The position numbers were made by a program, and so were the translations under genes. Below, piece after piece: positions 1 to 56,884 of a stretch of DNA of 64,000 nucleotides. The notes under the pieces are model-generated. The model did no database searches, was not told the origin of the DNA, and saw only the letters and a list, made by a program, of their open reading frames with translations. The DNA is taken from contig JAZRFH010000036.1 of the NCBI GenBank assembly GCA_045661245.1, forward strand, positions 8,928 to 72,927, in the 5' to 3' direction. Position 1 is the first letter of the stretch. Each line of letters opens with the position of its first letter. This DNA is from Eubacteriales bacterium. Lineage in GTDB: Bacteria > Bacillota > Clostridia > Oscillospirales > CAG-272.

Positions 1-364
1 GCTTTGCGCTAAGGAAAACGCAAGAAACAACGGTATTACGAACGCGCACTTTTTTACGGGTGACGCAAAAAGCACAGAAGCTCTCCTTAAAAACGCAGAG
101 CGCGAGCTTGGCAAGAAAATAGAGCCCGACATTATTATACTTGACCCGCCGCGTGCAGGTCTTGACCCTGAGCTTATAAGCTTTGCAAGCTCGCTCTCGC
201 CCCGAAAAATCGTTTACATTTCCTGCAACCCAAAAACCCTCGCGCGCGACGTTAAGGCATTCGCAGAGCTCGGCTACACGGCAAACGAGGTTTTACCTGT
301 TGATATGTTCCCGGGGACAGGGCACGTGGAAAGTTTAGTTTGTCTGAAGAAACAGACAAACTAA
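1..364 (+). CDS. rumA: RumA/TrmA-family 23S rRNA (uracil-5-)-methyltransferase, C-terminal fragment (5' end lies outside the window)
   Basis: Frame 2 is open from nt 2 and reads ...IIILDPPRAGLDPEL...KIVYISCNPKTLARDVKAF...DMFPGTGHVESLVCLKKQTN*. The DPPRAG and YISCNP motifs are typical of m5U RNA methyltransferases. Confidence 0.85.
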   Translation, partial: LCAKENARNNGITNAHFFTGDAKSTEALLKNAERELGKKIEPDIIILDPPRAGLDPELISFASSLSPRKIVYISCNPKTLARDVKAFAELGYTANEVLPVDMFPGTGHVESLVCLKKQTN

Positions 365-365
365 A
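334..365. repeat. Perfect 13-bp inverted repeat (hairpin) covering the last rumA codons and the stop codon
   Basis: TTTAGTTTGTCTG (334-346), loop AAGAAA, CAGACAAACTAAA (353-365). No T-tract follows. Confidence 0.8.
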
Positions 366-591
366 GCGATATAAATCCTCACGGATTTGAGATATTTGCC
401 TTATGGCAAGCGATATACCTACGGCGCGATATGCCGCGAACTGCGCGGCGTGAGGATTTTATAGAGCGTACTTTCAACCACATTCGCCACAGGCGAATAT
501 ATCGCTGTTTCGCATTGCGTAACAATATCGCGCTTGCGAAGCAAGCATATCGCGCACCGAAGGTGCATATCGCTTTCGCCCGCAGGCGAAA
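366..591. repeat. Array of 7 heptamers interleaved with unrelated short palindromes: GCGATAT x3, then the reverse complement ATATCGC x4
   Basis: GCGATAT at 366, 410 and 426; ATATCGC at 499, 525, 547 and 567. Mini-hairpins: TTGCC-TTAT-GGCAA (396-409), TTCGCC-ACA-GGCGAA (483-497), GCTTGC-GAA-GCAAGC (532-546), GCACC-GAA-GGTGC (554-566), TTTCGCC-CGCA-GGCGAAA (574-591). An 11-bp stem pairs 373-383 with 449-459. Confidence 0.85.
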
Positions 592-614
592 CAACTTTAC
601 GAAAGGATAAAGTT

Positions 615-956
615 ATGAACAAGTCTATCAAAGAACTCGCCGTAGAGCTCACCATAGAAATAACCGCATTTTGTGACAACATCAAAGGCAGAGCGGTATT
701 TGTCAATCAACTTTTGCGCTCCTGCTCGTCCATAGGTGCTAACAGTTATGAAGCAAAGTACGCACAAAGCACAGCCGATTTTATAAACAAACTTGAGATT
801 GCGCTGAAAGAATGTTATGAAACAGACTATTGGCTTGAAATCCTATTCAAGGTCGGCTCGATGGATGAAAATACATACAAAGCACTTTCTAACAAATGTG
901 GCGCTATTCGCAGAAAACTCATCGCTTCTATCACGACAGCAAAAGAAAACGCATAA
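615..956 (+). CDS. Four-helix-bundle protein (23S rRNA intervening-sequence protein / Avd-like family)
   Basis: 113 aa from ATG 615, behind an AAGGA ribosome-binding site. The sequence ...ITAFCDNIKGRAVFVNQLLRSCSSIGANSYEAKYAQSTADFINKLEIALKECYETDYWLEIL... matches the characteristic pattern of TIGR02436/PF05635 proteins. Confidence 0.8.
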   Translation: MNKSIKELAVELTIEITAFCDNIKGRAVFVNQLLRSCSSIGANSYEAKYAQSTADFINKLEIALKECYETDYWLEILFKVGSMDENTYKALSNKCGAIRRKLIASITTAKENA

Positions 957-23111: not shown

Positions 23112-24371
23112 ATGTATTACGGATATAAAATAAGTGACTATACCAAGAGCCTTGCAGAAAGAGCCGAGGCTGACTGCCGTGAGGTATTTAAAAAAATTGA
23201 CGAGAACGCACTTCTTTGCTCTGCAAAAATACTGAACGCCTTTCAGAATCAGCGCGTTTCAACCTCAGATTTCATAGAAATCACGGGCTACGGCTATACG
23301 GACGACGGCAGGGACAAGCTTGAGAGAATTTACGCAGAGGTTTTCGGTGCAGAGGACGCGCTTGTAAGACCGCAGATTATGTCGGGCACGCACGCACTTG
23401 CAATAACGCTCGGTGGCTTACTTAAGCACGGAGATACACTCGTTTACGTATCGGGTGAGCCGTACGACACCTTAAGGAGCGTTATCGGTACGGCGGGAGA
23501 TAGCAGAAACTCGCTTATCAAGTGCGGTATAAAATACGAGGAAATCAACCTTGTGGGTGACGAATTTGACCTTGATGCAATAAAAGAGCGCTTTAGTAAA
23601 GATTTTGTAAAGGTTGCGGCAATACAGCGCAGCCGCGGTTATTCGCAGAGAAAAAGCCTTGTAATTGATAAGATAGCCGAAGCTATAAAGGTTATAAAAG
23701 AGGTGTCACCCGATACTATAGTTATGGTAGACAACTGCTACGGTGAGTTTACAGAGGACCGTGAGCCCTGCGAGGTTGGTGCTGACGTTTTTGTCGGCTC
23801 AATGATGAAAAATCTCGGTGCGGGCTTTGCAAAGAGCGGCGGCTACTGTGTAGGCCGTGCTGATATAATCGAGGATATTGCCGAAAGGCTGACTGCCCCC
23901 TGTGTTGGTAAAAGCCTTGGTGCAAACTTTAATCAGCTTGCTGATTTTTACAAGGGATTTTTTATGTCACCGACGACGGTTGCGGCAACGCTTAAATCAA
24001 TGGCGTTTGCGGCAAGAGTGCTTGAGCTTGCAGGCTTTGAGGGTGTGTCACCGAGATATGACGAGAAACGCACCGACATTGTGCAGACTATAGATTTCTG
24101 CGACCCCGACAAGCTTATAAAATTCTGCAAGGGCATACAGATGGGCTCGCCCGTTGAGTCATACTGCATACCCGAGCCGGGCGATATGCCGGGCTACCCC
24201 CACCCCGAGATAATGGCGGCGGGAACGTTTATTACGGGTGCTACAAACGAGCTCTCGTGCGACGGACCCCTTTGCCCGCCTTACACGGCGTATATGCAGG
24301 GCGGCCTTACCTACGACTACGGCAAGCTTGGCGTAATGCGCGCGCTTGACGAAATGCTGGATTTATCATAA
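23112..24371 (+). CDS. Methionine gamma-lyase family protein (YnbB / aluminium-resistance family, PLP-dependent)
   Basis: ITGYGYTDDGRDKLERIYAEVFGAEDALVRPQIMSGTHA matches the pattern I recall for this family; 419 aa. Confidence 0.7.
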   Translation: MYYGYKISDYTKSLAERAEADCREVFKKIDENALLCSAKILNAFQNQRVSTSDFIEITGYGYTDDGRDKLERIYAEVFGAEDALVRPQIMSGTHALAITLGGLLKHGDTLVYVSGEPYDTLRSVIGTAGDSRNSLIKCGIKYEEINLVGDEFDLDAIKERFSKDFVKVAAIQRSRGYSQRKSLVIDKIAEAIKVIKEVSPDTIVMVDNCYGEFTEDREPCEVGADVFVGSMMKNLGAGFAKSGGYCVGRADIIEDIAERLTAPCVGKSLGANFNQLADFYKGFFMSPTTVAATLKSMAFAARVLELAGFEGVSPRYDEKRTDIVQTIDFCDPDKLIKFCKGIQMGSPVESYCIPEPGDMPGYPHPEIMAAGTFITGATNELSCDGPLCPPYTAYMQGGLTYDYGKLGVMRALDEMLDLS

Positions 24372-24402
24372 GCAAATAATTATTTACATACAGGAGCACA
24401 GA

Positions 24403-25011
24403 ATGAACAAGTGCTATTTAGTGGGTGCAGGTGATTTTTTTGGTATGCCGACGCCCGACGGGGGCGACCTTGTAATTGCCGCAGACGGCGGATATAACCA
24501 TTTAATCTCACACGGGTTGCGGTGCGACCTGCTTATAGGCGACCTCGATTCCCTTGTCGGTGGGCCACCCGAAATAGAGCTTATACGCCACCCCGTAAAA
24601 AAGGATATGACGGATATGTACCTCGCATATCTTGAGGGTGTGCGCCGCGGATACACGGAGTTTGAAATATACGGTGCATCGGGCGGCAGAGAGGACCACA
24701 CGCTTGCAAACTACTCGCTTTTGCTGTATGCAAGGGAGCAGGGTAACAGTGCGGCTCTCTACAGCAAAAATGCCTGCGCACGTGTTATAAAAAACGAAAG
24801 TGTAATTATTACGGGTACGTGCGGTAAAACTCTCTCGGTTTTTGCTTTTGGCAAGGACGCTTTGGGAGTTGATATTATAGGTGCGGAGTACGAGGCCCTT
24901 GGAGTAAACCTCTCAATGTCATTCCCCCTTGGGGTATCAAACAGCTTTAAAGACGAGCCTGTTACAATTAGTGTGCGTGATGGGGCTTTACTGATAATTT
25001 CAGAAATTTAA
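24403..25011 (+). CDS. thiN: Thiamine diphosphokinase
   Basis: ATG 24403 behind AGGAG. IGDLDS and KKDMTDM motifs; 202 aa. Confidence 0.8.
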   Translation: MNKCYLVGAGDFFGMPTPDGGDLVIAADGGYNHLISHGLRCDLLIGDLDSLVGGPPEIELIRHPVKKDMTDMYLAYLEGVRRGYTEFEIYGASGGREDHTLANYSLLLYAREQGNSAALYSKNACARVIKNESVIITGTCGKTLSVFAFGKDALGVDIIGAEYEALGVNLSMSFPLGVSNSFKDEPVTISVRDGALLIISEI

Positions 25012-25020
25012 GTTTTTCAC

Positions 25021-25049
25021 TTGACAACGCAAGTTTCACTTGCTATAAT
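25021..25049 (+). promoter_or_regulatory. Consensus sigma-A-type promoter for the thiT leader
   Basis: TTGACA (25021-25026), 17 nt, TATAAT (25044-25049). Confidence 0.75.
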
Positions 25050-25069
25050 ACTCTTGAACCGAACAGAAT

Positions 25070-25150
25070 AAATATCAGGGGTGCTCTCGGGCTGAGATAG
25101 CGTTTAGCTAAACCCTTTAACCTGATACGGATAATGCCGTCGTAGGAAGA
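25070..25150 (+). promoter_or_regulatory. TPP (THI-box) riboswitch aptamer
   Basis: GGGGTGC...CTGAGA...ACCC...AACCTGAT..GGATAATGCC...GGAAG conserved blocks appear in the correct order upstream of thiT. Confidence 0.9.
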
Positions 25151-25180
25151 TTATAAGTGGTTTTTTCCATTATATTTAAC

Positions 25181-25218
25181 ACCGCACGGATATCTATCCT
25201 GTGCGGTATCTTTATTTT
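25181..25218 (+). terminator. Riboswitch expression-platform terminator (attenuator)
   Basis: ACCGCACGG ... CCTGTGCGGT stem followed by ATCTTTATTTTT, immediately before the thiT ribosome-binding site. Confidence 0.7.
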
Positions 25219-25230
25219 TGGAGGTTTGTT

Positions 25231-25824
25231 ATGAGAAACAAACAAATTACCACTCTTTCAGAGTGCGCGGTAATGATTGCACTCGCCTTTGTGCTGAGCT
25301 GTGCCAAGCTTTACGAGATGCCCCTTGGCGGCTCAATTACCGTCGCAAGCATGCTGCCTATTATGCTAATCAGCATCAAATACGGCACACTTTGGGGTTT
25401 AGGCTCAGCATTTCTTTACTCCGGCACGCAGGCACTGCAGGCTTTAGCCGCCGGCAACGTATTTCCCTACTGTGAAACCGCACCGACGCTTATACTCTGC
25501 GTTCTTTTCGACTACTTAGTACCCTTTACGCTTATAGGTCTTTCGGGCGTATTTATGAAGAACGTGAAAATCAAGAGCACCGAGGCGCGCGCGTATATCG
25601 GTATGACACTGACTGTAGCACTGCGCTTTGTATGCCACTATATCACGGGCGTTGTAATATGGGGTCAGTGGGCACCCGACGGAATGGGTAAATTCCTTTA
25701 TTCCTTGCTTTACAACGGCGGATTTTTGCTGCCCGACCTTTTAATTTGCATAGCCGCCGCGGTTTTGATGTTCAGAAAGAGCGAGATACGCAAGCTTTGC
25801 TGTCTTGATAAATACAAGGCATAA
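25231..25824 (+). CDS. thiT: Energy-coupling-factor thiamine transporter S component ThiT
   Basis: 197-aa, 6-helix membrane protein directly behind the TPP riboswitch. ATG 25231 behind GGAGG. Confidence 0.8.
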   Translation: MRNKQITTLSECAVMIALAFVLSCAKLYEMPLGGSITVASMLPIMLISIKYGTLWGLGSAFLYSGTQALQALAAGNVFPYCETAPTLILCVLFDYLVPFTLIGLSGVFMKNVKIKSTEARAYIGMTLTVALRFVCHYITGVVIWGQWAPDGMGKFLYSLLYNGGFLLPDLLICIAAAVLMFRKSEIRKLCCLDKYKA

Positions 25825-25835
25825 ATAAAAAACAA

Positions 25836-25871
25836 AGGGAACAGAGCCGAATACTCTATTCCCTATTTTTA
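25836..25871. terminator. Bidirectional terminator between thiT and the exonuclease gene
   Basis: AGGGAACAGAG ... CTCTATTCCCT stem followed by ATTTTTAT. Confidence 0.55.
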
Positions 25872-26834
25872 TTTCTCGGTCTGCCTGCGCGGTCCGCGCG
25901 GCTTTCTCTGCCGTATCTTTCTTCTCGCAGCCGTGCGCACAAGCGCGTCTTTAAATTCGGCCAGCTGCTCCTCTGTTGCTTTGGAAACCGTACGGCGTGC
26001 GCGCCAGGTTTCATTAAAATTCTTATGTAGCTTAAGAGATAATAGCATATCTCCGCACTTTTCGCATTTGTAATGAAGCGTGTATCTCTGCCCCTTTGAG
26101 TGCAGAACCTTGCCGTCGCTTATAAGCTTGCCCTTGCATATCGGGCAGAGGGGATTTGCCACCGCATCGTCTGATAGCATCTCGCCTATCGTAACGTATC
26201 CGTCGTCGCCTGCGTCAGCGTCACCTATAACGCCCTCTTCAAGAAACTCGCCCCCCCTCTCATTGTAGGTGCGAATACCGAGGGCAATATCAAGCTTTTG
26301 CGCCACGAGGGCGGTGAAATACGCATCGTTGAGCGCATCGTGAGCCGGCAGGTTCATTGGAATACCGTAGTAATCCATCGCGTATTCAAGCGCGCGCTGC
26401 TTTGAGAGGCCGTCGGTCTGCCTTGAGAACATCAGCTGTAGGTCGTAGGTGTTGTTAAGCCAGCTCTGGTCAATGGAATTGACATGAAAATTCTCTTTCA
26501 GCATCGGTATATCGTCAGGGCCCCAGGTGAGAAAAGCAAAATCCTCACCGCACCACCGCCTGAAGCTCTCTGCCGCCTCGGTAAGCGGTGTGCCAACGTC
26601 CATCTGCGCCTGCGTAATACCCGTAAGGCTTGATACGTGACTGTGTAATTTTTTAAAATACTTCGGTTTTACTATTATTTGATACGAACCGCATATACGG
26701 AGCTTTGAATCGAGCTTTACAGCGCCGATTTGAATAACCTCGCCCCTAAGTCTTGCCGAAAGCTGCCTTTGCACGGCAAGTGCCTTTTGTGCGTATGCCT
26801 GGTTCCATTCAAGGTCCAGAGTTATATAATACAT
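25869..26834 (-). CDS. DEDDh 3'-5' exonuclease with a C-terminal zinc ribbon and basic tail
   Basis: ITLDLEWN (ExoI), QIGAV and HDALNDAYF (ExoIII H-x4-D) motifs. C-terminal CPICKG...CEKCG. Start is ambiguous: ATG 26834 is preferred, and the longest ORF starts at 26879. Confidence 0.75.
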   Translation of the reverse strand: MYYITLDLEWNQAYAQKALAVQRQLSARLRGEVIQIGAVKLDSKLRICGSYQIIVKPKYFKKLHSHVSSLTGITQAQMDVGTPLTEAAESFRRWCGEDFAFLTWGPDDIPMLKENFHVNSIDQSWLNNTYDLQLMFSRQTDGLSKQRALEYAMDYYGIPMNLPAHDALNDAYFTALVAQKLDIALGIRTYNERGGEFLEEGVIGDADAGDDGYVTIGEMLSDDAVANPLCPICKGKLISDGKVLHSKGQRYTLHYKCEKCGDMLLSLKLHKNFNETWRARRTVSKATEEQLAEFKDALVRTAARRKIRQRKPRGPRRQTEK

Positions 26835-26926
26835 TTTTATGTCCTTGATTACTTTTTTACAACACATTGATTTTACCATATAGGAGAGGGAAAGTCAATA
26901 GATAAAGACTGCTATATCAAAATATC

Positions 26927-26955
26927 TTGACAAGTAATATAAGTTAAGCTATAAT
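26927..26955 (+). promoter_or_regulatory. Consensus promoter upstream of glnN
   Basis: TTGACA (26927-26932), 17 nt, TATAAT (26950-26955). Confidence 0.7.
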
Positions 26956-26993
26956 ATACGTATTATTTTGAAATTTGTCGGAGGCTCACGAAA

Positions 26994-29093
26994 ATGGAAA
27001 AAGAAATAATATCGGATATATTTGCCTCCTGTGTCTTCAGCGAGGACGTTATGAGGGAAAGACTGCCCAAAGAGGTATATAAATCCCTGCTTAACACCAT
27101 AGCTACGGGCAAGGAGATTGACACCGGAATTGCCGACATCGTGGCAGGAGCTATGAAGGATTGGGCAGTTGAGCACGGTGCTACACACTTTACCCATTGG
27201 TTCCAGCCTCTGACAGGCGTTACCGCGGAAAAGCACGACGCATTTTTAACACCCGTAGGCTCGGGTAAGGCGATAATGGAGTTCTCGGGCAAGGAGCTTA
27301 TCAAGGGCGAGCCCGATGCATCAAGCTTTCCCTCAGGCGGCTTACGAGCTACCTTTGAGGCGCGCGGATATACTGCGTGGGACCCGGCATCTTATGCGTT
27401 TATAAAGGACCAGTCACTTTACATACCCACGGCGTTCTGCTGTTCCACGGGCGAGGCGCTTGATTCGAACACACCCCTTTTCCGCTCTATGGACGCGATA
27501 AGCGCAGAGGGCTTAAGAATCGTAAGGCTCTTCGGTGACACTACGGCTAAGCGCGTTACCTCAACCGTAGGTGCTGAGCAGGAGTATTTCCTTATTGACG
27601 AGGGTGACTTCAAGGCAAGGCGCGACCTATTTTATTGCGGACGCACGCTTTTCGGAGCGCCTGCTGTTAAGGGTCAGGAGCTTGAGGACCACTATTTCGG
27701 TGTTTTGCGCCCTCGCGTTTCGGCATTTATGCACGAGCTTGACACCGAGCTTTGGAAGCTTGGCATCAGCGCAAAAACAAAGCACAACGAGGCAGCCCCC
27801 GCACAGCACGAGCTGGCGCCCATTTACTGTACTACTAATATTGCGGTTGACAACAACCTTTTAACTATGGAGGTTATGAAGACCATAGCCCCGAAATACG
27901 GAATGGCCTGCCTGCTTGCCGAAAAGCCCTTTGCAGGTATCAACGGCTCGGGTAAGCACAACAACTGGTCGCTCGGCACAGACACGGGTATAAACCTTTT
28001 GCGCCCGGGTAAAACACCTGCACATAACAAGCAGTTTTTACTTATGCTTGCCGCGGTTGTACGCGCGGTTGACGAATATCAAGACCTTTTGCGTATTTCA
28101 AGCGCAACCGCAGGCAACGATTGCCGTCTTGGCGGCGGCGAGGCACCGCCCTCTATAGTGTCAATATTCCTTGGCGACGAGCTTGATATGATTATTGATT
28201 CCATCATAGCGGGTTCGGATTATTCGGACGAAAAGAACAGCAAATATATGTCACTTGGCATTCCGTCGATACCCAATATCAGGCGCGATACCGCTGACAG
28301 AAACCGCACCTCGCCCTTTGCATTTACAGGCAACAAGTTTGAGTTCCGTATGGTGGGCTCGTCGCAGAATATCGCACTTGCGAATATAGTTATCAACACC
28401 TCTGTTGCAAGTGTTTTGCACGATTTTGCAGACGAGCTTGAGGCGGCAGGCGATTTCGAGGCAACCTTAACCGAAATTATTGCGCGCACCTTTAAAAATC
28501 ACAAGCGCATAATATTCTCGGGCAACTCTTATTCTGAGGAATGGGTAAAGGAAGCTGAGGCGCGCGGTCTATCCAACTTCCGCACCTCTCCCGAGGCTTA
28601 CGCACATTTTACCGACGAGAAGAACGTTGAGCTCTTTGGTAAATTCGGTATTATGAGCGAGTCGGAAATGCGCTCGCGCCGCGAGATATTCTTTGAGAGC
28701 TACAGAAAGATAAAGAATATTGAGGCAAAGACGATGCTCGAAATGACGATACGCGATTACATACCTGCCGTTACGAAATACGTAGGTGCGCTCTCAAGCA
28801 GTGTTGTCAGCACCAAGGCCGCCCTGCCCACAGCAAACACTTCGGCAGAGAGTGACCTTATCGAAAAGCTCTCAGACCTCTTAGCAAGAACCTATACTGC
28901 GTACAACGAGCTTATGCGTGTAGAAAATATTGCGGTTAAAAAGACCTGCGACGAGGAAGCCGCCTTCTACTACAAGACGAGCGTTATACCGAAAATGGAT
29001 ACGCTGCGCCGCGCGGTAGACGAGATGGAAATCCTGTGTGCCCGTGAGTATTGGCCCGTGCCTACCTACGGCGACATCACGTTCAGAGTATAA
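26994..29093 (+). CDS. glnN: Glutamine synthetase type III
   Basis: 699 aa, the length class of GSIII. FTHWFQPLTG and NGSGKHNNWS motifs. Confidence 0.85.
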   Translation: MEKEIISDIFASCVFSEDVMRERLPKEVYKSLLNTIATGKEIDTGIADIVAGAMKDWAVEHGATHFTHWFQPLTGVTAEKHDAFLTPVGSGKAIMEFSGKELIKGEPDASSFPSGGLRATFEARGYTAWDPASYAFIKDQSLYIPTAFCCSTGEALDSNTPLFRSMDAISAEGLRIVRLFGDTTAKRVTSTVGAEQEYFLIDEGDFKARRDLFYCGRTLFGAPAVKGQELEDHYFGVLRPRVSAFMHELDTELWKLGISAKTKHNEAAPAQHELAPIYCTTNIAVDNNLLTMEVMKTIAPKYGMACLLAEKPFAGINGSGKHNNWSLGTDTGINLLRPGKTPAHNKQFLLMLAAVVRAVDEYQDLLRISSATAGNDCRLGGGEAPPSIVSIFLGDELDMIIDSIIAGSDYSDEKNSKYMSLGIPSIPNIRRDTADRNRTSPFAFTGNKFEFRMVGSSQNIALANIVINTSVASVLHDFADELEAAGDFEATLTEIIARTFKNHKRIIFSGNSYSEEWVKEAEARGLSNFRTSPEAYAHFTDEKNVELFGKFGIMSESEMRSRREIFFESYRKIKNIEAKTMLEMTIRDYIPAVTKYVGALSSSVVSTKAALPTANTSAESDLIEKLSDLLARTYTAYNELMRVENIAVKKTCDEEAAFYYKTSVIPKMDTLRRAVDEMEILCAREYWPVPTYGDITFRV

Positions 29094-29099
29094 AAATAA

Positions 29100-29160
29100 A
29101 AGCAAGAATAAAAGGAAATTTCAGTTGCGAAAAAGCCTTAATATTCTTGCTTTTTTATTT
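29100..29160. terminator. Bidirectional terminator between glnN and azlD
   Basis: AAGCAAGAATA ... TATTCTTGCTT long stem flanked by A-runs and T-runs. Confidence 0.5.
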
Positions 29161-29166
29161 TTGTTT

Positions 29167-29502
29167 TTAGCTTAAATACGGTATTACGTATCTTATTACA
29201 CACTCAGAGATAAGGGCCGTGCCAGCACCGCCAAGAGCAACCAGAACCATTCCCCGCTCAAAATAAGCCAGCACGAGGCACACGGCAAACGCCAATATTC
29301 CCGATACTATATTACCCGTAGCATATATGACGGTGGGAAAGGTCATAACCGTGAGCACAACGTACGGCACGTAAAAAAGAAACGAACGAATAAACGTGCT
29401 TTTGATTTTGCGCTTTATAAAAAGAAGCGGTAAGAGCCTTATAAGGTACGTTGTGAGCGACATAAGAAAAAGGCACACGAAAAATCTGATTTCGGGATTC
29501 AC
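29167..29502 (-). CDS. azlD: AzlD family branched-chain amino acid transport protein
   Basis: 111-aa hydrophobic protein overlapping the end of azlC by 4 nt. Confidence 0.75.
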   Translation of the reverse strand: MNPEIRFFVCLFLMSLTTYLIRLLPLLFIKRKIKSTFIRSFLFYVPYVVLTVMTFPTVIYATGNIVSGILAFAVCLVLAYFERGMVLVALGGAGTALISECVIRYVIPYLS

Positions 29503-30212
29503 GCTTCACCCACCCCGCTTTCCTTAATAGGTGCCGCGATGGCAAAGACGGCACTTACAGTCACAGTACATATAACTATAACAAAGCCCGAGGGCACTTT
29601 ATTTAACACGGGTATGTAGTAAAAGGCAGAGGAAAGCGCCATAGCACAGAGAACGCAGATAAGCGTTTTAATACTCCGCTTAGCCGCAGGCAGAACTATA
29701 GCAACGAACATCGCGTAGAGCGAGATTGACAGTGCCGTTACGAGCACGCTCGGCAAAATACTGCCTGCCGCTGAGCCAAGGAGCGTGCCAAGCGTCCACC
29801 CAAGGTAGGGTAAAAGAATCAAGCCCTGCATATATCTTCTGCCGAGCATTTGCTCTTTGCCTATAGCAACCGCAAAGATTTCGTCGGTATTGGCAAAGCC
29901 AATGAGAAGCCTATCCCTAAGTCTTACGCGGCGGCCGAGCCTTTGAGTTAGTGAAACTGACATCAGGGCGTACCTTGAATTTATAACGAGCTGAGTAGCT
30001 ACGAGCTCAACAAACGCACCGCCGCCGGCTATTATCGGCACTGCCGCAAGCTGACCTGCCGAGGTAAGGTTAAACATTGATATAAAGAGCGCCTGATACC
30101 AGGTAAGCCCCTCTGCAACCGACAACAGACCAAAGCCGAATGACACTGCAAAATATCCAAGGCAGATAGGAAACCCGTCGCGCAGGCCCATTTTAAAATT
30201 ATTGTTTTCCAT
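29499..30212 (-). CDS. azlC: AzlC family transporter permease
   Basis: GLRDGFPICLGYFAVSFGFG N-terminal motif. ATG 30212 lies 1 nt after the upstream stop. Confidence 0.8.
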   Translation of the reverse strand: MENNNFKMGLRDGFPICLGYFAVSFGFGLLSVAEGLTWYQALFISMFNLTSAGQLAAVPIIAGGGAFVELVATQLVINSRYALMSVSLTQRLGRRVRLRDRLLIGFANTDEIFAVAIGKEQMLGRRYMQGLILLPYLGWTLGTLLGSAAGSILPSVLVTALSISLYAMFVAIVLPAAKRSIKTLICVLCAMALSSAFYYIPVLNKVPSGFVIVICTVTVSAVFAIAAPIKESGVGEA

Positions 30213-30213
30213 T

Positions 30214-31938
30214 TTATTCCTTAAACTGATATGCGTAAAGCTTGCTGTACTCACCGCCAAGGCCTATAAGCTCGTCGTGAGTGCCGCTTTCAACTATGCC
30301 GCCGTCGTCTATTACCATAATTCTATCGGCATTTTTAACTGTTGAGAGTCTGTGCGCAACCACTATAACCGTTCTGCCGCGCGAGAGCTCCTCAAGAGAT
30401 GCCTGTATCTGCATTTCTGTAGCATTGTCAAGCGCGCTCGTAGCCTCGTCAAGAATTAAGAGCTTGGGGTTTTTGAGGAATACCCTGGCTATTGAAATTC
30501 TCTGCTTCTGCCCGCCCGAGAGCTTAACTCCGCGCTCGCCTACCTGTGTATCGTACCCGTTCTCAAGCGTCATAATATAGTCGTGTATATTTGCGCGCTT
30601 TGCGGCAAGAATAAGCTCCTCGTCGGTGGCGTCGGGGTTACTGTATGCGATATTCTCCCTTACTGTGCCGTCAAAGAGAAACACGTTCTGCGACACTATA
30701 CCTATATTGCGCCTAAGACTCTCAAGAGTTATATCCTGAACGTCAACGCCGTCTATCGTAATTCTGCCGGATATGCAGTTATAAAAACGCGGTATAAGGT
30801 TACAAAGGGTACTCTTTCCGCCGCCCGACGGGCCGACGAGAGCCAAGGTCTCACCCCTGCCTATATTCATAGAGAGGTCCGAAATAACCATTCTTTCGTG
30901 CGCGCCGCCGTCACTCTCATAGCCGAAGGTTACGTTTTCAAAGGCGACGTCGCCCTCTATATCCTCAATCACGACAGTGCCGTTATCCGCCTCTGACTCA
31001 AGGTCCATAATCTCGGTAAAGCGCTCAAAGCCCGATATACCGTCCTGCATCTGCTCAACGAGCGTTACTATGCGGCGTATGGGATTTAAGAACATCGAGA
31101 TGTAAAGTAAGAACGCGGCAAACTCACCGGGGTTAATCTCACCGTATATAAGAAACAGACCGCCGGCGAAAACTACGAGCAGATACAAAAGGTCGGTCAA
31201 AAACTCAACCACCGCGGAGAATGAGCCGAGCGAGCGCATAGCATCGCTTCTGTAACGGGCAAATATTTTGTTTACGCCGAAGAACTTTTTAATCTCGTGG
31301 GGCTCTGAGGCATACGCCTTAGTTTCTCTGATACCCGTAATGGAGTTTTCAAGCGTTGTGTTTATCTCGGACATTTGCTTACGCGAGGCACGCATCGCAC
31401 GCATCATTGAGCGCCTTGAAATTACCGTAAAGATAATTATAAAGGGGATAACCGAGAACATTATAAGCGTCAGCCGCCAATCAATGCCCACAAGCACTAT
31501 GAACGAACCGACAAACATAAGGGCGGCAAGAAAAATATTCTCAGGGCCGTGGTGGGCAAGCTCTGAAATATTCTGCAGGTCGTTCGTAAGCCTTGAGAGC
31601 AAATCTCCCGTCTTATGCTTATCAAAATAGGTAAAGGGCAGTCGCTCATACTTAATAAACAGGTCGCGGCGCATATCTGCCTGCATTCTTACGCCTACAA
31701 CGTGGCCAAGATACCCGACTATATAATTGCACACCGCCTTTAAAATGTAGACAAGTAACAGCACAACAGCACCTATAACTATAGGTGTTACGGTATCTCT
31801 GTAGGCGTAGTCGTTTATCATTTCCTTTGCTATAAAGGGATAAACCAAGTTACATGCCGCAAGCACTACTGCGGCAACCATATCAAGCACGAAAAGCCCA
31901 AGATGGGGCTTATAATAGCTTATAAATCTTTTAATCAT
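30214..31938 (-). CDS. ABC transporter ATP-binding protein/permease (exporter type)
   Basis: N-terminal 6-helix domain; GPSGGGKST, LSGGQKQRISIARV and LILDEATSALD motifs. Confidence 0.9.
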   Translation of the reverse strand: MIKRFISYYKPHLGLFVLDMVAAVVLAACNLVYPFIAKEMINDYAYRDTVTPIVIGAVVLLLVYILKAVCNYIVGYLGHVVGVRMQADMRRDLFIKYERLPFTYFDKHKTGDLLSRLTNDLQNISELAHHGPENIFLAALMFVGSFIVLVGIDWRLTLIMFSVIPFIIIFTVISRRSMMRAMRASRKQMSEINTTLENSITGIRETKAYASEPHEIKKFFGVNKIFARYRSDAMRSLGSFSAVVEFLTDLLYLLVVFAGGLFLIYGEINPGEFAAFLLYISMFLNPIRRIVTLVEQMQDGISGFERFTEIMDLESEADNGTVVIEDIEGDVAFENVTFGYESDGGAHERMVISDLSMNIGRGETLALVGPSGGGKSTLCNLIPRFYNCISGRITIDGVDVQDITLESLRRNIGIVSQNVFLFDGTVRENIAYSNPDATDEELILAAKRANIHDYIMTLENGYDTQVGERGVKLSGGQKQRISIARVFLKNPKLLILDEATSALDNATEMQIQASLEELSRGRTVIVVAHRLSTVKNADRIMVIDDGGIVESGTHDELIGLGGEYSKLYAYQFKE

Positions 31939-31971
31939 TTTCTTTCCATTCCGTCACTCGGGACAAAAAAA

Positions 31972-32556
31972 TCAAAACTCCCTGTAGCCGTATTTATACG
32001 CAAGCGCACGGCGCGCCTCGGGGTCTGAAGTACCCGTTTTCTCTGCTAAGAGCTGAAAGCTCCTTTTAAAATCTATTTCTCCGCTCTCACAAAGCCCGTG
32101 TATTGCCGTGTCAATATCTTGAGCGCTGTATCCCTTACCCATAAGGCTCTGCTTTATATACATAGGGCCGCGCAGCTTGGAGTTTGCGAGCACAGACACA
32201 AGGCGCATAAGCTGCTCCCTCTCATTTATATATCCGTGCGCCACACAGTCCTCTACCGCAAAGCGCACCGCACTGCGCGAAAATCCTGCACGCAAAAGCT
32301 TAAGTGTGAGCGTGCGCTCGCTGTTGTCTGCGTAGGATAAAAGCGAAAGGGCGCGGCGCAGGGCACGGAAGCGCTCGTCGTCCTCTGCAATCACCTTAAC
32401 AGTATCACTGTCAAGCCCGTCACCCTTAATCGGTGAGCCTATGTTACTGTAGACCTCGCCGGTCACGGTATAGCACTCGCGCTTACCGTCTATAACAAGG
32501 CCTATAGAAATATATCCCTTTTGCCGTGACTCTTTTACGTATATAACCTTATACAT
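31972..32556 (-). CDS. recX: Recombination regulator RecX
   Basis: Lies downstream of recA. Three-repeat helical protein; ...RALSLLSYADNSERTLTLKLLRAGFS... Confidence 0.8.
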   Translation of the reverse strand: MYKVIYVKESRQKGYISIGLVIDGKRECYTVTGEVYSNIGSPIKGDGLDSDTVKVIAEDDERFRALRRALSLLSYADNSERTLTLKLLRAGFSRSAVRFAVEDCVAHGYINEREQLMRLVSVLANSKLRGPMYIKQSLMGKGYSAQDIDTAIHGLCESGEIDFKRSFQLLAEKTGTSDPEARRALAYKYGYREF

Positions 32557-41115: not shown

Positions 41116-42066
41116 ATGTTTGACAAAAAAAGAGTGAAAATAAAAGACAGAGAGGCAATACTCATATCGGGTCTTGGTGAATACGACCTTGAAAAAACGA
41201 TGGAGTGCGGGCAGTGCTTCCGCTACGAGAGAATACCGGCGGACGAAACTGTTAAGGCGTATCAGACGGTAGTTGGCAATTTACTTATTGAGGTTTGGCA
41301 ACAGAAACCGGGCGAGCTTATCTTCTTTGACCTTACCGACGAAGACTTTGAAGGAGTTGCCGCGCCCTATTTCGCCCTGACACACAACCTTTCGGAAATT
41401 AAAGAAAACATTAAAGCCCACACCGATTCGCAGTGGCTTGGTGAGGCGGCAGATGCCTCGGCAGGTATAGCTATACTTAAGCAAGACCCGTGGGAAGCGC
41501 TCGTATCGTTTATAATCTCGCAGAATAACAATATCCCACGTATCAGAAAGATAGTGCGCGAAATCTGTGCCGAGTACGGTGTAAATCTTTGTTTACAGAA
41601 AGAAAATGCGAGCAAATGCCCGCTTGGTATAATAAGTGACACCCCGTGTGAAGAAAAGTGCAAGAAATGCGGCAGATGCTACACCTTCCCGACACCGAGC
41701 GATATACTTAATAATCCCGAGGGGATTTTGCCGTCGCGCCCTGGCTTTCGCTACGGATACATTCTCGACGCGGCAGAAAAGGTGTATAGCGGTCAGTGCG
41801 ATTTAGAGAAAATCAGAAAAAGAGCCTCTTACGAATATACAAGAGAGGAGCTGAAGAAAATCAAGGGCGTTGGCGATAAGGTTGCCGCATGCGTTGCACT
41901 CTTTGGCTTTAGCAATCTCGAGGCATTCCCCATTGACGTATGGATGAAGCGCGCGATTGACACCTATTTTAACGGTGAGCTGGACCCCGCCACCCTCGGC
42001 CCGTATGCAGGTATCGCACAGCAGTACATATTCAATTACATACGTTACCTAAGCAATAAAGATTAA
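41116..42066 (+). CDS. ogg: 8-oxoguanine DNA glycosylase (OGG1-type, HhH-GPD) with a Cys-rich insertion
   Basis: ECGQCFRY N-domain motif, IISQNNNIPRI, and the HhH-GPD segment IKGVGDKVAACVALFG...FPIDVW. ATG 41116 behind AGAGG. Confidence 0.8.
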   Translation: MFDKKRVKIKDREAILISGLGEYDLEKTMECGQCFRYERIPADETVKAYQTVVGNLLIEVWQQKPGELIFFDLTDEDFEGVAAPYFALTHNLSEIKENIKAHTDSQWLGEAADASAGIAILKQDPWEALVSFIISQNNNIPRIRKIVREICAEYGVNLCLQKENASKCPLGIISDTPCEEKCKKCGRCYTFPTPSDILNNPEGILPSRPGFRYGYILDAAEKVYSGQCDLEKIRKRASYEYTREELKKIKGVGDKVAACVALFGFSNLEAFPIDVWMKRAIDTYFNGELDPATLGPYAGIAQQYIFNYIRYLSNKD

Positions 42067-42072
42067 AAAAAC

Positions 42073-42119
42073 AAAAGAGCAAGAAGAGAAAAACTCTCAA
42101 CTCGCTCTTTTTTTGTTTT
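42073..42119 (+). terminator. Intrinsic terminator after ogg
   Basis: AAAAGAGCAAG ... CTCGCTCTTTT stem (one mismatch) followed by a T-run. Confidence 0.6.
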
Positions 42120-42134
42120 CAAAATCGGTTATTC

Positions 42135-42150
42135 AATGCAATTTTGCATT
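42135..42150. repeat. Inverted repeat AATGCAA-TT-TTGCATT
   Basis: 7-bp arms read directly in the convergent intergenic region between ogg and infB. Confidence 0.7.
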
Positions 42151-52535: not shown

Positions 52536-53171
52536 ATGAAAAAAGAAATACTCGGCAGGATAATGATACTTAACGGCAGTCCGCACGAAAAGGGGACTAC
52601 AAGGCGCGCTATTGACGAGGTAGCCGCAGTGCTGACAGACGAAGGCTTTGAGGTTAAGATACATACCCTCGGTGCTCTTGGTGCAGAAGGATGCCGTGCA
52701 TGCGGCGGCTGTGCCAAGCTTGGAAAATGCGTAATAGACGACGTAGTAAACGAGCTTGCCGAAGAAATGTGCGAGGCTGACGGCGTAATTCTTGCGTCAC
52801 CCGTATACTACGCCGCGCCAAACGGTGCTTTTCTCGCAATTTTAAACAGGCTCTTCTACAGCACGAGGTTTGATAAGACAATGAAGGTCGGTGCATCTAT
52901 AGTAGCGGCGCGCCGTGCAGGGCTCAGCGCAAGCTTTGATGTGCTAAACAAATATTTCTCCATCAGCGGTATGCCGGTTGTATCCTCGTATTACTGGGAC
53001 CAGATACACGGCAAAAGCTATGACGAGGCAGAGGGCGACCTTGAGGGTCTTGACACTATGCGCTCGCTTGGCAAAAATATGGCATTTCTTATAAAGGCAA
53101 TCAAGGACGCAAAAGAAAAATACACCTGCCCGGAAAAACCAAGCAAGGTGTATACAAATTTTATCCGTTAA
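52536..53171 (+). CDS. NAD(P)H-dependent FMN reductase / iron-sulfur flavoprotein family
   Basis: ILNGSPH, CRACGGCAKLGKC and ILASPVYYAAPNG motifs. ATG 52536 behind GAGAGG. Confidence 0.75.
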   Translation: MKKEILGRIMILNGSPHEKGTTRRAIDEVAAVLTDEGFEVKIHTLGALGAEGCRACGGCAKLGKCVIDDVVNELAEEMCEADGVILASPVYYAAPNGAFLAILNRLFYSTRFDKTMKVGASIVAARRAGLSASFDVLNKYFSISGMPVVSSYYWDQIHGKSYDEAEGDLEGLDTMRSLGKNMAFLIKAIKDAKEKYTCPEKPSKVYTNFIR

Positions 53172-53183
53172 GGCAAGTGCCTG

Positions 53184-53888
53184 TTAAGAGCGCGATTTAT
53201 GCGCTCTTATTTTTTTAACCATGCCGTATATCACAAACGCAAGAGATAGAATTATCACCGACGTGCCGATAAGCGCCGCACAGCTCATAAAAAACTCCTC
53301 GGGCATAGCCAGAATAATTTTGTCCGTGCGGGCGTCAAAGAGCCAATTGCTTTTGCCCGGGAAAAACACGGTATGAAAAACGTAAAATGCAGTATCAAAG
53401 TCGATAAGCACCAAAGCACCGAGTGTGGCAAAGACAAAAAGCGTAACAGCACCCGACCAGAACGCGGGGCAAAGGCCAAGGAAATACGTTGGCTTTAAAG
53501 CATTAAACCGCACAAGCAACAGCCAAGCACATATTATAATGGCAGAGAGAATATAAACTGTAGCATTTAGTGTAAACAATGCTTTACAATCTCTGAAATG
53601 GTCCGCACCGCTCTCGGAATACGCAAACTGCCCTGCACTAAATTCACCCCCGGGGCGTGTTAAAAAATCAAGTACCTCGTCATATCCCTCGATAATGGTT
53701 TCTCGGTCAAAGCCCGTGCTTTTCTCAATACCGAGAGGCTCTATCTGCATATAGTAAAATCCGCGAGCATATATTGGTAAGCCTATGGAAAAGCTAACTG
53801 TAAAGAAGATAAGTGCTGCTATAAATATCACCGTTAGAATAGATGCGAGGGTGCTGTTTTTATTTTGGTTTACTCTACTATCCATCAC
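53184..53888 (-). CDS. TIGR01906/DUF1461-like integral membrane protein (Lit family?)
   Basis: N-terminal transmembrane helix, an extracytoplasmic segment with ...ETIIEGYDEVLDFL...HFRDCKALF..., then 4 helices and FHTVFFPGKSNWLF. Family assignment is from memory. Confidence 0.5.
   Translation of the reverse strand: MMDSRVNQNKNSTLASILTVIFIAALIFFTVSFSIGLPIYARGFYYMQIEPLGIEKSTGFDRETIIEGYDEVLDFLTRPGGEFSAGQFAYSESGADHFRDCKALFTLNATVYILSAIIICAWLLLVRFNALKPTYFLGLCPAFWSGAVTLFVFATLGALVLIDFDTAFYVFHTVFFPGKSNWLFDARTDKIILAMPEEFFMSCAALIGTSVIILSLAFVIYGMVKKIRAHKSRS
53186..53216 (+). terminator. Intrinsic terminator of the flavoprotein gene (lies inside the 3' end of the convergent gene)
   Basis: AAGAGCGC ... 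GCGCTCTT stem followed by ATTTTTTT. Confidence 0.6.
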
Positions 53889-56726: not shown

Positions 56727-56803
56727 GGCGGATTAGCTCAGTTGGCTAGAGCGTCCGGTTCATACCCGGCAGGTCGTTGGTTCAAATCCGACATCCGCTA
56801 CCA
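56727..56803 (+). tRNA. tRNA-Met (anticodon CAT, elongator-like)
   Basis: Cloverleaf folded by hand: acceptor GGCGGAT/ATCCGCT, D arm GCTC-AGTTGGCTA-GAGC, anticodon loop TTCATAC, T arm GTTGG-TTCAAAT-CCGAC, encoded CCA. tRNA-Ile2(CAT) cannot be excluded. Confidence 0.85.
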
Positions 56804-56809
56804 CACTTT

Positions 56810-56884
56810 GGCTCGTTGGTCAAGCGGTTAAGACACGGCCCTTTCACGGCTGTAACAGCGGTTCGATTCCGCTACGAGTCACCA
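56810..56884 (+). tRNA. tRNA-Glu (anticodon TTC)
   Basis: GGCTCGTTGGTCAAGCGGTTAAGACACGGCCCTTTCACGGCTG...TTCGATTCC...CGAGTCACCA. Anticodon loop CTTTCAC. Close to the Bacillus tRNA-Glu pattern. Confidence 0.9.

Follow-up and report, generated by a model that had tools for sequence, protein, structure and literature searches.

A Gut-1-like array of heptamers and variable hairpins associated with four-helix-bundle genes in Clostridia

A dense array of one heptamer in both orientations, interleaved with short hairpins, lies between two genes of a 64-kb stretch of DNA from a Eubacteriales bacterium (contig JAZRFH010000036.1, positions 8,928 to 72,927; this whole stretch is called the window, and the element coordinates given below are window positions). 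Upstream of the array is the 3' end of a rumA-type RNA (uracil-5) methyltransferase gene, and downstream of it is a gene for a small four-helix-bundle (4HB) protein. An earlier note on this DNA had presented the array as an architecture that it did not recognise, and the locus raises two questions: whether the array belongs to something already known, and what it does beside the 4HB gene. As described below, the array is a sister of the Gut-1 RNA motif, the same architecture recurs in dozens of Clostridial genomes, and arrays of heptamers accompany 4HB genes in three phyla. For the second question we can offer a tentative answer, in which the array and the gene together form one small selfish cassette.

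Layout of the element in the window

The rumA gene (2..364, + strand; PF05958, E = 1.7e-14) ends with the stop codon TAA at 362-364. GCGATAT was found on the + strand at 366, 410, and 426, and its complement ATATCGC at 499, 525, 547, and 567, as the earlier note had reported; all seven exact copies fall within 229 nt, a length for which chance predicts about 0.04. When the whole 64-kb window was examined, 23 copies of GCGATAT or ATATCGC were counted, compared with 11.5 ± 3.5 in dinucleotide-preserving shuffles, and the 16 copies outside the 229-nt segment were spread over the window at about chance density. Because the density outside 363-591 is at the level of chance, and given the comparison with shuffles, compositional bias was ruled out as the cause of the heptamer cluster.

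All intervals between the heptamers are hairpins, formed by palindromes of 9-19 nt. The first half of the element, the class I or Gut-1-like module (366..449, + strand), consists of four heptamers, each followed by a hairpin: GCGATAT at 366, H1 at 373-388 (AAATCC-TCAC-GGATTT), the degenerate eighth heptamer of the element (GAGATAT, 389-395), H2 at 396-409, GCGATAT at 410, the weak hairpin H3 at 417-425, GCGATAT at 426, and H4 at 433-449. The second half, the class II module (499..591, + strand), has the same organisation with ATATCGC: the heptamer at 499 is followed by H5 (506-524), that at 525 by H6 (532-546, GCTTGC-GAA-GCAAGC), that at 547 by H7 (554-566, GCACC-GAA-GGTGC), and that at 567 by H8 (574-591, TTTCGCC-CGCA-GGCGAAA). 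Given the degenerate fourth heptamer and the hairpins of the first half, the element is therefore a structure of four plus four. The two modules are separated by a junction (460..498, + strand) that includes one further hairpin at 483-497 (TTCGCC-ACA-GGCGAA). This junction hairpin, H6, H7, and H8 had already been named in the earlier note, and its description of a constant 7-mer alternating with variable palindromes was confirmed and extended to the first half and to 506-524.

Long-range complementarity is also present, as had been claimed, between 363-372 and 567-576 (10 nt), between 424-434 and 545-555 (11 nt), and between 373-383 and 449-459 (11 nt). The last of these involves a distal copy of the 3' arm of H1 (CGTGAGGATTT, 449..459, + strand), whose pairing with 373-383 is an alternative long-range helix that closes the class I module. 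The segment 330-615 was predicted to fold far better than shuffled sequences on both strands (z = -7.6 and -8.1), and in its minimum free energy (MFE) fold, heptamers of one half form long-range pairs with those of the other. Downstream of class II, a short hairpin (AACUUUA / UAAAGUU; 593..614, + strand), recognised from the MFE fold and the sequence, holds the Shine-Dalgarno motif AAAGGA (602-607) in its loop, just 5' of the ATG at 615. The hairpins of the window have no trailing U tracts. A promoter scan of the + strand of the window element gave no convincing promoter and no signal above shuffles, in agreement with the earlier note.

Ahead of the first heptamer, and abutting it, is H0, a perfect 13-bp hairpin (TTTAGTTTGTCTG at 334-346 and CAGACAAACTAAA at 353-365; no strand was assigned) that encodes the last residues of rumA (SLVCLKKQTN*), including the stop codon. 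H0 belongs to the element. Nearly all composites, the term used here for loci with H0, both modules, and the junction, have an equivalent strong hairpin, variable in sequence, ahead of the first heptamer. As in the window (334-365), H0 is made of the final codons of the upstream gene in three other loci (L013, L080, and L097). In some loci, the upstream open reading frame (ORF) runs through H0 and stops at a TAA formed by GCGATAT plus AA. Both the stop codon of the host gene and its C-terminal residues are therefore contributed by the element. Because our in-house ORF caller was crude and its 'inside ORF' flags were noisy, only long ORFs ending at H0 were used.

Recurrence in Clostridia and relation to Gut-1

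Other genomes were scanned for three spaced copies of GCGATAT, and at least 120 matches were listed. At least 76 hairpin-type modules were recognised in at least 55 loci (54 loci of the genome scan plus the window). All 54 loci of the scan were labelled as Clostridia or subgroups thereof (Oscillospiraceae, Acutalibacteraceae, Ruminococcaceae, and others); matches from Proteobacteria, Actinobacteria, cyanobacteria, and other groups were not of the hairpin type and were set aside as unrelated tandem or coding repeats. Among the matches listed, exactly four heptamers were present in 60 of the 76 modules, and where modules were paired, GCGATAT preceded ATATCGC 17 times, compared with a single case of the reverse order. 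The spacing of the heptamers ranged from 13 to 35 nt and had no preferred helical phase.

The full succession of H0, four units of GCGATAT plus hairpin, the junction, and four units of ATATCGC plus hairpin is carried by at least 24 Clostridial contigs from gut and rumen, and modules homologous to class I occur in 28 loci. The canonical H1 reads AAATYCC-loop-GGRATTT, and the distal copy of its 3' arm separates class I from class II; the resulting junction, ...GGRATTT-ATATC|ATATCGC, is common to at least 23 composites. The junction of the window is about 35 nt longer than the canonical ...GGATTTATATC|ATATCGC form, and alignment showed that this expansion is common to the window and three other loci (L086, L241, and L242). 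Class II hairpins with tandem G·A pairs were seen in many loci.

Side observations of several kinds were made on these loci. One Clostridia metagenome-assembled genome (RGIG2985; L060, 1650-8000) carries four solo ATATCGC modules in 8 kb. In the three cases where the sequence could be followed to a start codon, the module ends 25-40 nt short of it, and the downstream proteins start like PyrF, RNase PH, and YhbY, as judged from their N-terminal sequences only. Hairpins resembling repetitive extragenic palindromic (REP) sequences of the GTAG type lie just 5' of the modules in this locus, and hairpin units have apparently been shuffled between its arrays. GC-rich, GTAG-headed (REP-like) hairpins were also seen beside modules, or inside the junction between class I and class II, in L020, L022, L078, L089, and L108.

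The hairpins were compared slot by slot in 15 composites. In the seven hairpin slots, 79-97% of arm positions pair within a locus; when the arms were swapped between loci as a control, pairing dropped to 37-61%, with the exception of the sequence-conserved slot H1 (82%). The sequence occupying each slot almost always differs between the 15 composites. RNAalifold also revealed compensatory changes in class I. However, the MAFFT alignment of the length-variable class I hairpins on which it was run was poor and two helices were called, and the slot-wise arm-swap control was relied on instead. According to these comparisons, the hairpins are selected for pairing and not for sequence. Covariation extends to the segment distal to H4, which changes together with H1 (AAATCC, AAATTCC, GGATCC, or GAATTC, and GAAAT/ATTTC in GTGAAAT-type elements).

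A strong asymmetry between the strands was also found. On the ATATCGC strand, the loops read C-GNA-G or C-GNNA-G (GAA 21 times, AAA 12 times), and 33 of the 63 tetraloops are GNNA, compared with none on the opposite strand. Stem mismatches on the ATATCGC strand, again compared with the opposite strand, were 47 versus 1 for G·A and 11 versus 5 for G·T. This bias holds in both halves of the element, and in class I the favoured strand is antisense to rumA. The biased loops and mismatches argue that the element works as a single strand; it is the opposite strand that Rfam models.

In a permissive Rfam scan, the two halves of the window element matched Gut-1 (RF01706) at 30.6 bits (502-575, - strand) and 29.4 bits (364-437, + strand), below the Gut-1 gathering score of 50 bits. 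The E values were 0.0026 and 0.0052 when 3 kb were searched, and 0.056 and 0.11 for the full 64 kb. Both halves align to the whole 77-nt model. Other GCGATAT-type composites also score below the threshold (26-31 bits), and Rfam would therefore not annotate the window element. The element nevertheless has the defining features of Gut-1: at least three variable hairpins, a conserved 7-nt linker of the form G[U/C]GA[A/U]AU, and a strong hairpin, ending in ...CA, ahead of the first linker. Like Gut-1, it comes from gut contigs of Clostridial type. Moreover, some sequences of the Gut-1 seed alignment have GCGAUAU and GUGAUAU as linkers, with an inverted AUAUCAC array behind them, and so show the same two-part layout. 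The window element is a sister of Gut-1, and the claim of an unrecognised architecture in the earlier note, which had itself named an Rfam match as the counter-evidence, falls by its own rule. Other Rfam families were ruled out; a SAM-III match in L043 (15.6 bits) and a mir-2831 match on H0 were regarded as noise.

Several differences from Gut-1 should be pointed out. The linker of the window element is uniformly GCGAUAU, and the Rfam model comprises three hairpins of one half only, on the strand opposite to that with the GNRA/GNA loop bias. The second half, the junction, and the link to 4HB genes are absent from the published description. The description of Gut-1, published in 2010, was based on human-gut metagenomes and gave neither a function nor a cultivated host; the motif was graded there as certainly an RNA and not cis-regulatory (Weinberg et al. 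2010, PMC2864571); no literature on Gut-1 beyond that study was found. As a side observation, a true Gut-1 composite of the GTGATAT type (57 bits; L120, 2763-2888) lies about 270 nt from a GCGATAT-type composite of the same genome, and the two heptamer types therefore coexist in one organism.

The earlier note had further judged the array to be unlike clustered regularly interspaced short palindromic repeats (CRISPR), iterons, REP sequences and bacterial interspersed mosaic elements (BIME), or integron attC sites, and this judgement held when the features of each class were compared. CRISPR arrays have direct repeats of 23-50 nt and non-palindromic spacers, whereas the repeat of the window has 7 nt, occurs in both orientations, and is separated by palindromes. 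Iterons are 17-22 bp long, helically phased, and close to a replication gene; the heptamers are spaced by 13-35 nt without a preferred phase, and there is no rep gene. With REP sequences, BIMEs, and REPINs served by REP-associated tyrosine transposases (RAYT), the element shares an intergenic position, often right after stop codons, the occurrence of inverted pairs, a short conserved single-stranded motif by a hairpin, strand-specific hairpin features, and, in L060, multiple copies. However, REP palindromes begin with GTAG and keep their sequence within a genome, whereas the hairpins of the window all differ and lack a GTAG head; the constant part here is a 7-mer in four copies, no RAYT-like gene is linked to it, and the 64-kb window has one element. 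Like attC sites, the element accompanies small promoterless ORFs and is a structure-defined site with 7-nt cores of which one folded strand is functional, and direct repeats of a site flank cassettes in two loci (L250 and L335). It differs in that RYYYAAC/GTTRRRY cores are lacking, that the heptamers are direct repeats within a module instead of a single inverted pair, and that no long cassette arrays were seen. No integrase was found among the best 25 of the 102 Pfam families of the window.

Association with four-helix-bundle genes and dispersal of copies

The gene that follows the array (615..956, + strand) encodes a protein of 113 aa belonging to PF05635 (E = 4.4e-21) and TIGR02436 (87 bits). 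TIGR02436, the '23S rRNA intervening sequence protein' family, comprises thousands of 90%-identity clusters in gut metagenomes alone; our search for homologues returned 5522 clusters, and the best 120 of the 5522 are all at least 78% identical. An AlphaFold model of the window protein (pLDDT 95) gave TM-scores of 0.86-0.90 to 2RLD, 0.87 to 2GSC, and 0.80-0.84 to Avd (0.83 to 4DWL and 0.80 to chains of 8UB7), and on this model the protein is predicted to have an Avd-like fold. The deposited entries 2RLD and 2GSC contain five chains each, and by analogy with them the window protein would be a pentamer.

In the Clostridial loci, the class II module was found directly 5' of the 4HB gene (76-95% identical) in the window, L013, L045, L057, L080, L086, L242, and L250, and a remnant of class II occupies the same place in L092. 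A class II array was likewise present directly 5' of every close 4HB homologue examined, including the contexts of P0007 and P0107, and all 19 of the 19 N-terminally over-called database versions of the protein translate 3-4 heptamers. The order rumA, composite, 4HB gene is also found in L080, L092, L013, and L250; where rumA is shared, it is 42-45% identical, compared with 76-82% for the 4HB gene. More distant 4HB homologues (53-57% identical) in L335, L340, L378, and L379 are preceded by composites of the GTGATAT and GTGAAAT types, that is, Gut-1 proper, and the junction changes with the type of heptamer (ATTTC|ATTTCAC in GTGAAAT-type elements). These latter arrays come from metagenomes and viral contigs.

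The association is not confined to Clostridia. At Bacteroides genes of the 2RLD clade, four copies of TTGACAA lie upstream and four copies of TTGTCAA downstream in 4 of 4 loci (contigs L380, L383, L386, and L387), and these genes sit within araD|araA and aminotransferase|DAHP-synthase operons. In Xanthomonadales (L389-L392), members of the 2GSC clade are located between accB and accC, with four heptamers of the GGGAATC type on one side and four of the complementary GATTCCC type on the other. The 4×7 arrays of both groups have no intervening hairpins. Complementary arrays bracket the ORF in all 6 of the 6 Bacteroides and Xanthomonadales loci, as well as in the Clostridial loci L250, L335, and L109. 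The association of arrays with 4HB genes thus extends over three phyla, with four copies of a lineage-specific 7-mer on one side and four copies of its complement on the other. A literature search found no paper describing these heptamer arrays or the Bacteroides repeats, and both the link between arrays and 4HB genes and the inverted 4×7-nt pattern in three phyla appear to have gone undescribed so far.

Inverted repeats bracketing the 4HB ORF of the window were searched for and none were found. Small fused half-sites were seen 3' of the 4HB gene in three loci, namely CGATATCG at 989-996 of the window, GATATAACATATCG in L086 (about 606-619), and, in slightly degenerate form, TATAACATATTG in L242 (about 2217-2228). 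Such a half-site could be the relic of a right-end pair of heptamers.

Composites have been dispersed to unrelated sites. Similarity between composites of different genomes ends at the edges of the element, and whole hairpin units have been exchanged between close relatives. In two loci (L241 and L242), about 13 nt of rumA 3' sequence accompany the H0 of the window at sites that are not rumA, an arrangement reminiscent of integrating elements that take along the 3' end of the gene they target. L242 has two copies, both with the rumA remnant, one being a composite with the 4HB gene and the other a composite without it; comparison of the two puts the insertion point of the 4HB gene right behind the last ATATCGC. 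L250 and L335 each have a segment made of class II and the 4HB gene that is enclosed by direct repeats of class I. Target-site duplications were sought in 24 composites, and a general duplication was ruled out, with one clear case (an 18-bp flanking direct repeat in L144) and a 10-bp match in L045. A phage origin was also rejected: one of the 120 pattern matches in viral contigs was a true composite (L144), and the rest were tandem or coding repeats. The plasmid collection yielded one true copy.

That copy (L241; OY726012.1, 4665-4774, labelled Phocaeicola massiliensis plasmid 38) comprises the rumA 3' remnant, H0, and class I, and is 82.7% identical to the window, with erm(G) and msr(D) about 210 nt upstream of it and two degenerate rumA 3' fragments further upstream. 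The Clostridial segment seems to have travelled with the macrolide-resistance region. In L340 and L379, a Gut-1-type composite and a 4HB gene were observed directly after a tRNA gene and its bidirectional terminator. Sites just after tRNA genes are a classic kind of integration site.

Possible modes of action and other features of the window

How might the array serve the 4HB gene? We tentatively favour, with a confidence that falls just short of even, the reading that 334-613 is the cis-acting repeat apparatus of a small selfish cassette resembling the intervening sequences (IVS) of 23S rRNA, and that the Avd-like 4HB gene (615-956) is its cargo. In such a cassette, the element would act as a single strand, most likely as RNA, in which the hairpins fold aside and leave a row of identical heptamers exposed. 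The exposed heptamers would dock singly on the repeated sites of a pentameric 4HB protein, and/or pair with the complementary array, forming a stem in segments by which the rumA-4HB transcript is punctuated or processed. Three parts of this reading are inferred from the comparisons given here: recognition of the heptamers by the 4HB protein, an active form made of RNA rather than DNA, and mobility of the unit as a cassette. The earlier note had considered a multi-site protein-binding platform; the comparative data favour the idea of such a platform for the adjacent 4HB protein, and binding by the protein remains an inference.

Two known systems served as models for this proposal. In Coxiella, an ORF of the same family (S23p/PF05635) is flanked by terminal inverted repeats; these pair to give a 28-bp stem, which RNase III cleaves (PMC4990558). 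The four heptamers of 7 nt likewise amount to 28 nt. The IVS of Coxiella and Leptospira resemble the heptamer-array elements in the family of the ORF and in its complementary terminal sequences (the 28-bp stem in Coxiella, 4×7 nt here and in other phyla), and are regarded as selfish, horizontally acquired, and inserted where interruption is tolerated (PMC4990558). The window element differs from them in lying between protein genes (rumA and a lipoprotein gene), with no rRNA in the window and hence none of helices 9, 25, or 45 as a site; in having periodic heptamers interrupted by hairpins as its repeats; and in having both complementary 4×7 arrays 5' of the ORF instead of bracketing it. The second model is the Avd pentamer (bRT-Avd; 4DWL and 8UB7). 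In the ribonucleoprotein of a diversity-generating retroelement (DGR), all five Avd protomers contact one RNA stem-loop, with flipped-out bases in the crevices between protomers and reuse of the same residues (10.1101/2023.10.23.563531). Besides the predicted fold and the presumed oligomeric state, the window gene shares with avd its position just after the 3' end of another gene and next to a hairpin. However, sequence identity to Avd is only about 15%, and neither a reverse transcriptase nor a pair of template and variable repeats is present beside the window 4HB gene; no reverse transcriptase was found adjacent to the 4HB gene in the related loci examined.

A number of observations weigh against the favoured reading. 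The protein of the window is near neutral (pI 7.6), unlike the strongly basic Avd, and the four heptamers of a module do not equal the five chains seen in crystals of the family. Most Clostridial loci, like the window, have both arrays 5' of the ORF, a downstream complementary array being confined there to L250, L335, and L109. Many solo and paired modules have no adjacent 4HB gene, among them the four solo modules found in 8 kb of L060, which lie upstream of housekeeping genes. The antisense orientation of the favoured class I strand is awkward for a role on the rumA-4HB mRNA, and promoter scans of the window, L379, L335, and L250 gave nothing above shuffles. Shared descent alone could account for the match between heptamer type and protein subfamily. 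Finally, wobble pairs account for only 16 of about 1030 stem positions, and triloops make up half of the loops; with these two features, the hairpins fit DNA at least as well as RNA.

A broader version of the favoured reading is doubtful, though we consider it worth stating. According to it, the PF05635/TIGR02436 genes, including the S23p ORFs, would be the cargo of one ancient, multi-phylum class of selfish cassettes with four copies of a 7-mer at one end and four copies of its complement at the other. Each interface between protomers of the encoded pentamer would hold one heptamer of the cassette's own arrays, in the form of RNA or single-stranded DNA, and this binding would drive or control excision, processing, or mobility; Gut-1 would represent hairpin-expanded Clostridial ends, and solo Gut-1 modules would be relics left after loss of the cassette. 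The present analysis itself suggests that Gut-1 and the TIGR02436 family, both long listed as 'function unknown', are two halves of one system. If a pentameric Avd-like protein does read four repeated heptamers, this would explain the presence of 4HB genes inside conserved operons (araD|araA and accB|accC) and inside rRNA, show a use of the Avd-type scaffold outside DGRs, and give a role to a widespread intergenic repeat of gut Clostridia; the Rfam model of Gut-1 would need correction in both strand and extent.

Three other explanations were weighed, none of which excludes the favoured reading. The complementary arrays might do no more than pair on a polycistronic transcript and be cut by RNase III, the 7-nt period being a by-product of slippage and the protein being uninvolved. 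The Coxiella stem provides the precedent for such processing, and the 28-nt perfect inverted arrays at the Bacteroides and Xanthomonadales 4HB genes would form a stem of that kind. In the window, the MFE fold pairs heptamers of both halves, and read-through from rumA into the 4HB gene is likely because there is no + strand promoter between them. However, solo modules keep four perfect heptamers without a partner array, and the 7-bp segments of the Clostridial elements are broken by two hairpins per step, which makes them a poor substrate for RNase III. Moreover, exactly four heptamers recur in four unrelated heptamer families, which points to a repeat that is counted and read out and not to a generic stem, and the strand-specific loop bias is left unexplained; as the whole explanation, processing is unlikely in our judgement. 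Quite improbable, in our estimate, is a stand-alone small RNA (sRNA) of about 110 nt and five hairpins, transcribed through class I on the ATATCGC strand from the junction toward H0 and serving as a decoy or sponge, with the 4HB gene being incidental. It would account for the GNRA/GNNA loops and tandem G·A pairs on the ATATCGC strand and for the position of H0 at the 3' end on that strand; in Gut-1 proper, H0 is flanked by A and T tracts and forms a bidirectional terminator (L335, L340, and L379), and the grading of Gut-1 by Weinberg et al. (PMC2864571) points the same way. The conserved junction reads GCGA-TATGATATAAAT on the ATATCGC strand, which resembles an extended -10 element, and the - strand of the window has a promoter-like site, TTGTTA-18-TATATT, at 525-496. 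However, these promoter-like matches were not above shuffles, the H0 of GCGATAT-type loci is usually without a U tract on either strand, and such an RNA would leave class II, the fixed pairing of the classes, the association with 4HB genes, and the hairpin-free 4×7 arrays of other phyla unexplained.

In the third of these explanations, the modules are the single-stranded DNA ends of a non-autonomous mobile element of the kind represented by REP/REPIN sequences, miniature inverted-repeat transposable elements, or attC-like sites; an unlinked HUH or tyrosine-type transposase or recombinase would read the hairpin and the heptamer, and the 4HB gene would be a passenger. C-GNA-G triloops, which make up about half of the loops, are classic extra-stable DNA mini-hairpins, as in d(GCGAAGC). 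The reading is kept alive by these triloops, by the rarity of wobble (G·T) pairs, and by the 9-nt hairpins, which were predicted to be unfolded with both the RNA and the DNA nearest-neighbour sets, neither of which includes a GNA bonus. It also agrees with the dispersed copies whose similarity is confined to the element, the 3'-end remnants of a target gene carried by copies, the direct repeats that flank some of them, the swapping of whole hairpin units between relatives, and the GTAG-type REP sequences beside or within modules in several genomes. However, no transposase or recombinase gene was seen beside any copy, target-site duplication was limited to the one clear case among 24 composites, and viral contigs and the plasmid collection each gave a single true copy. 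Orientation relative to the flanking genes is strongly fixed, which suggests a link to gene expression, and a constant 4HB partner across phyla is not accounted for. We regard this explanation as distinctly unlikely, taken by itself.

Chance, compositional artefact, or an ordinary cluster of terminators has practically no probability. Hairpins are generally abundant in intergenic DNA, and nothing further speaks for such an origin; it is refuted by the heptamer statistics (seven copies against 0.04 expected), by the recurrence of the same architecture in dozens of genomes, and by the covariation of the hairpins in the arm-swap control, and the hairpins are not followed by U tracts.

The remaining features of the window lie away from the element. 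The neighbours of the 4HB gene are the rumA, lipoprotein, APH-family kinase, and methyltransferase genes. GC skew is positive from 1 to 28 kb and negative from 28 to 56 kb, and gene orientation flips from mostly + to mostly - at about 29 kb; this switch region (24000-32000) may be a replication terminus. A thiamine pyrophosphate (TPP) riboswitch was found at 25067-25165 (+ strand, 74.5 bits), and two adjacent tRNA genes lie at 56727-56800 and 56810-56881 (both + strand). Two further Rfam matches were below threshold, namely the sRNA SpF01 at 42066-42142 (- strand, 40.3 bits compared with a threshold of 55) and an L20 leader at 53107-53222 (+ strand, 29 bits compared with 58.7).

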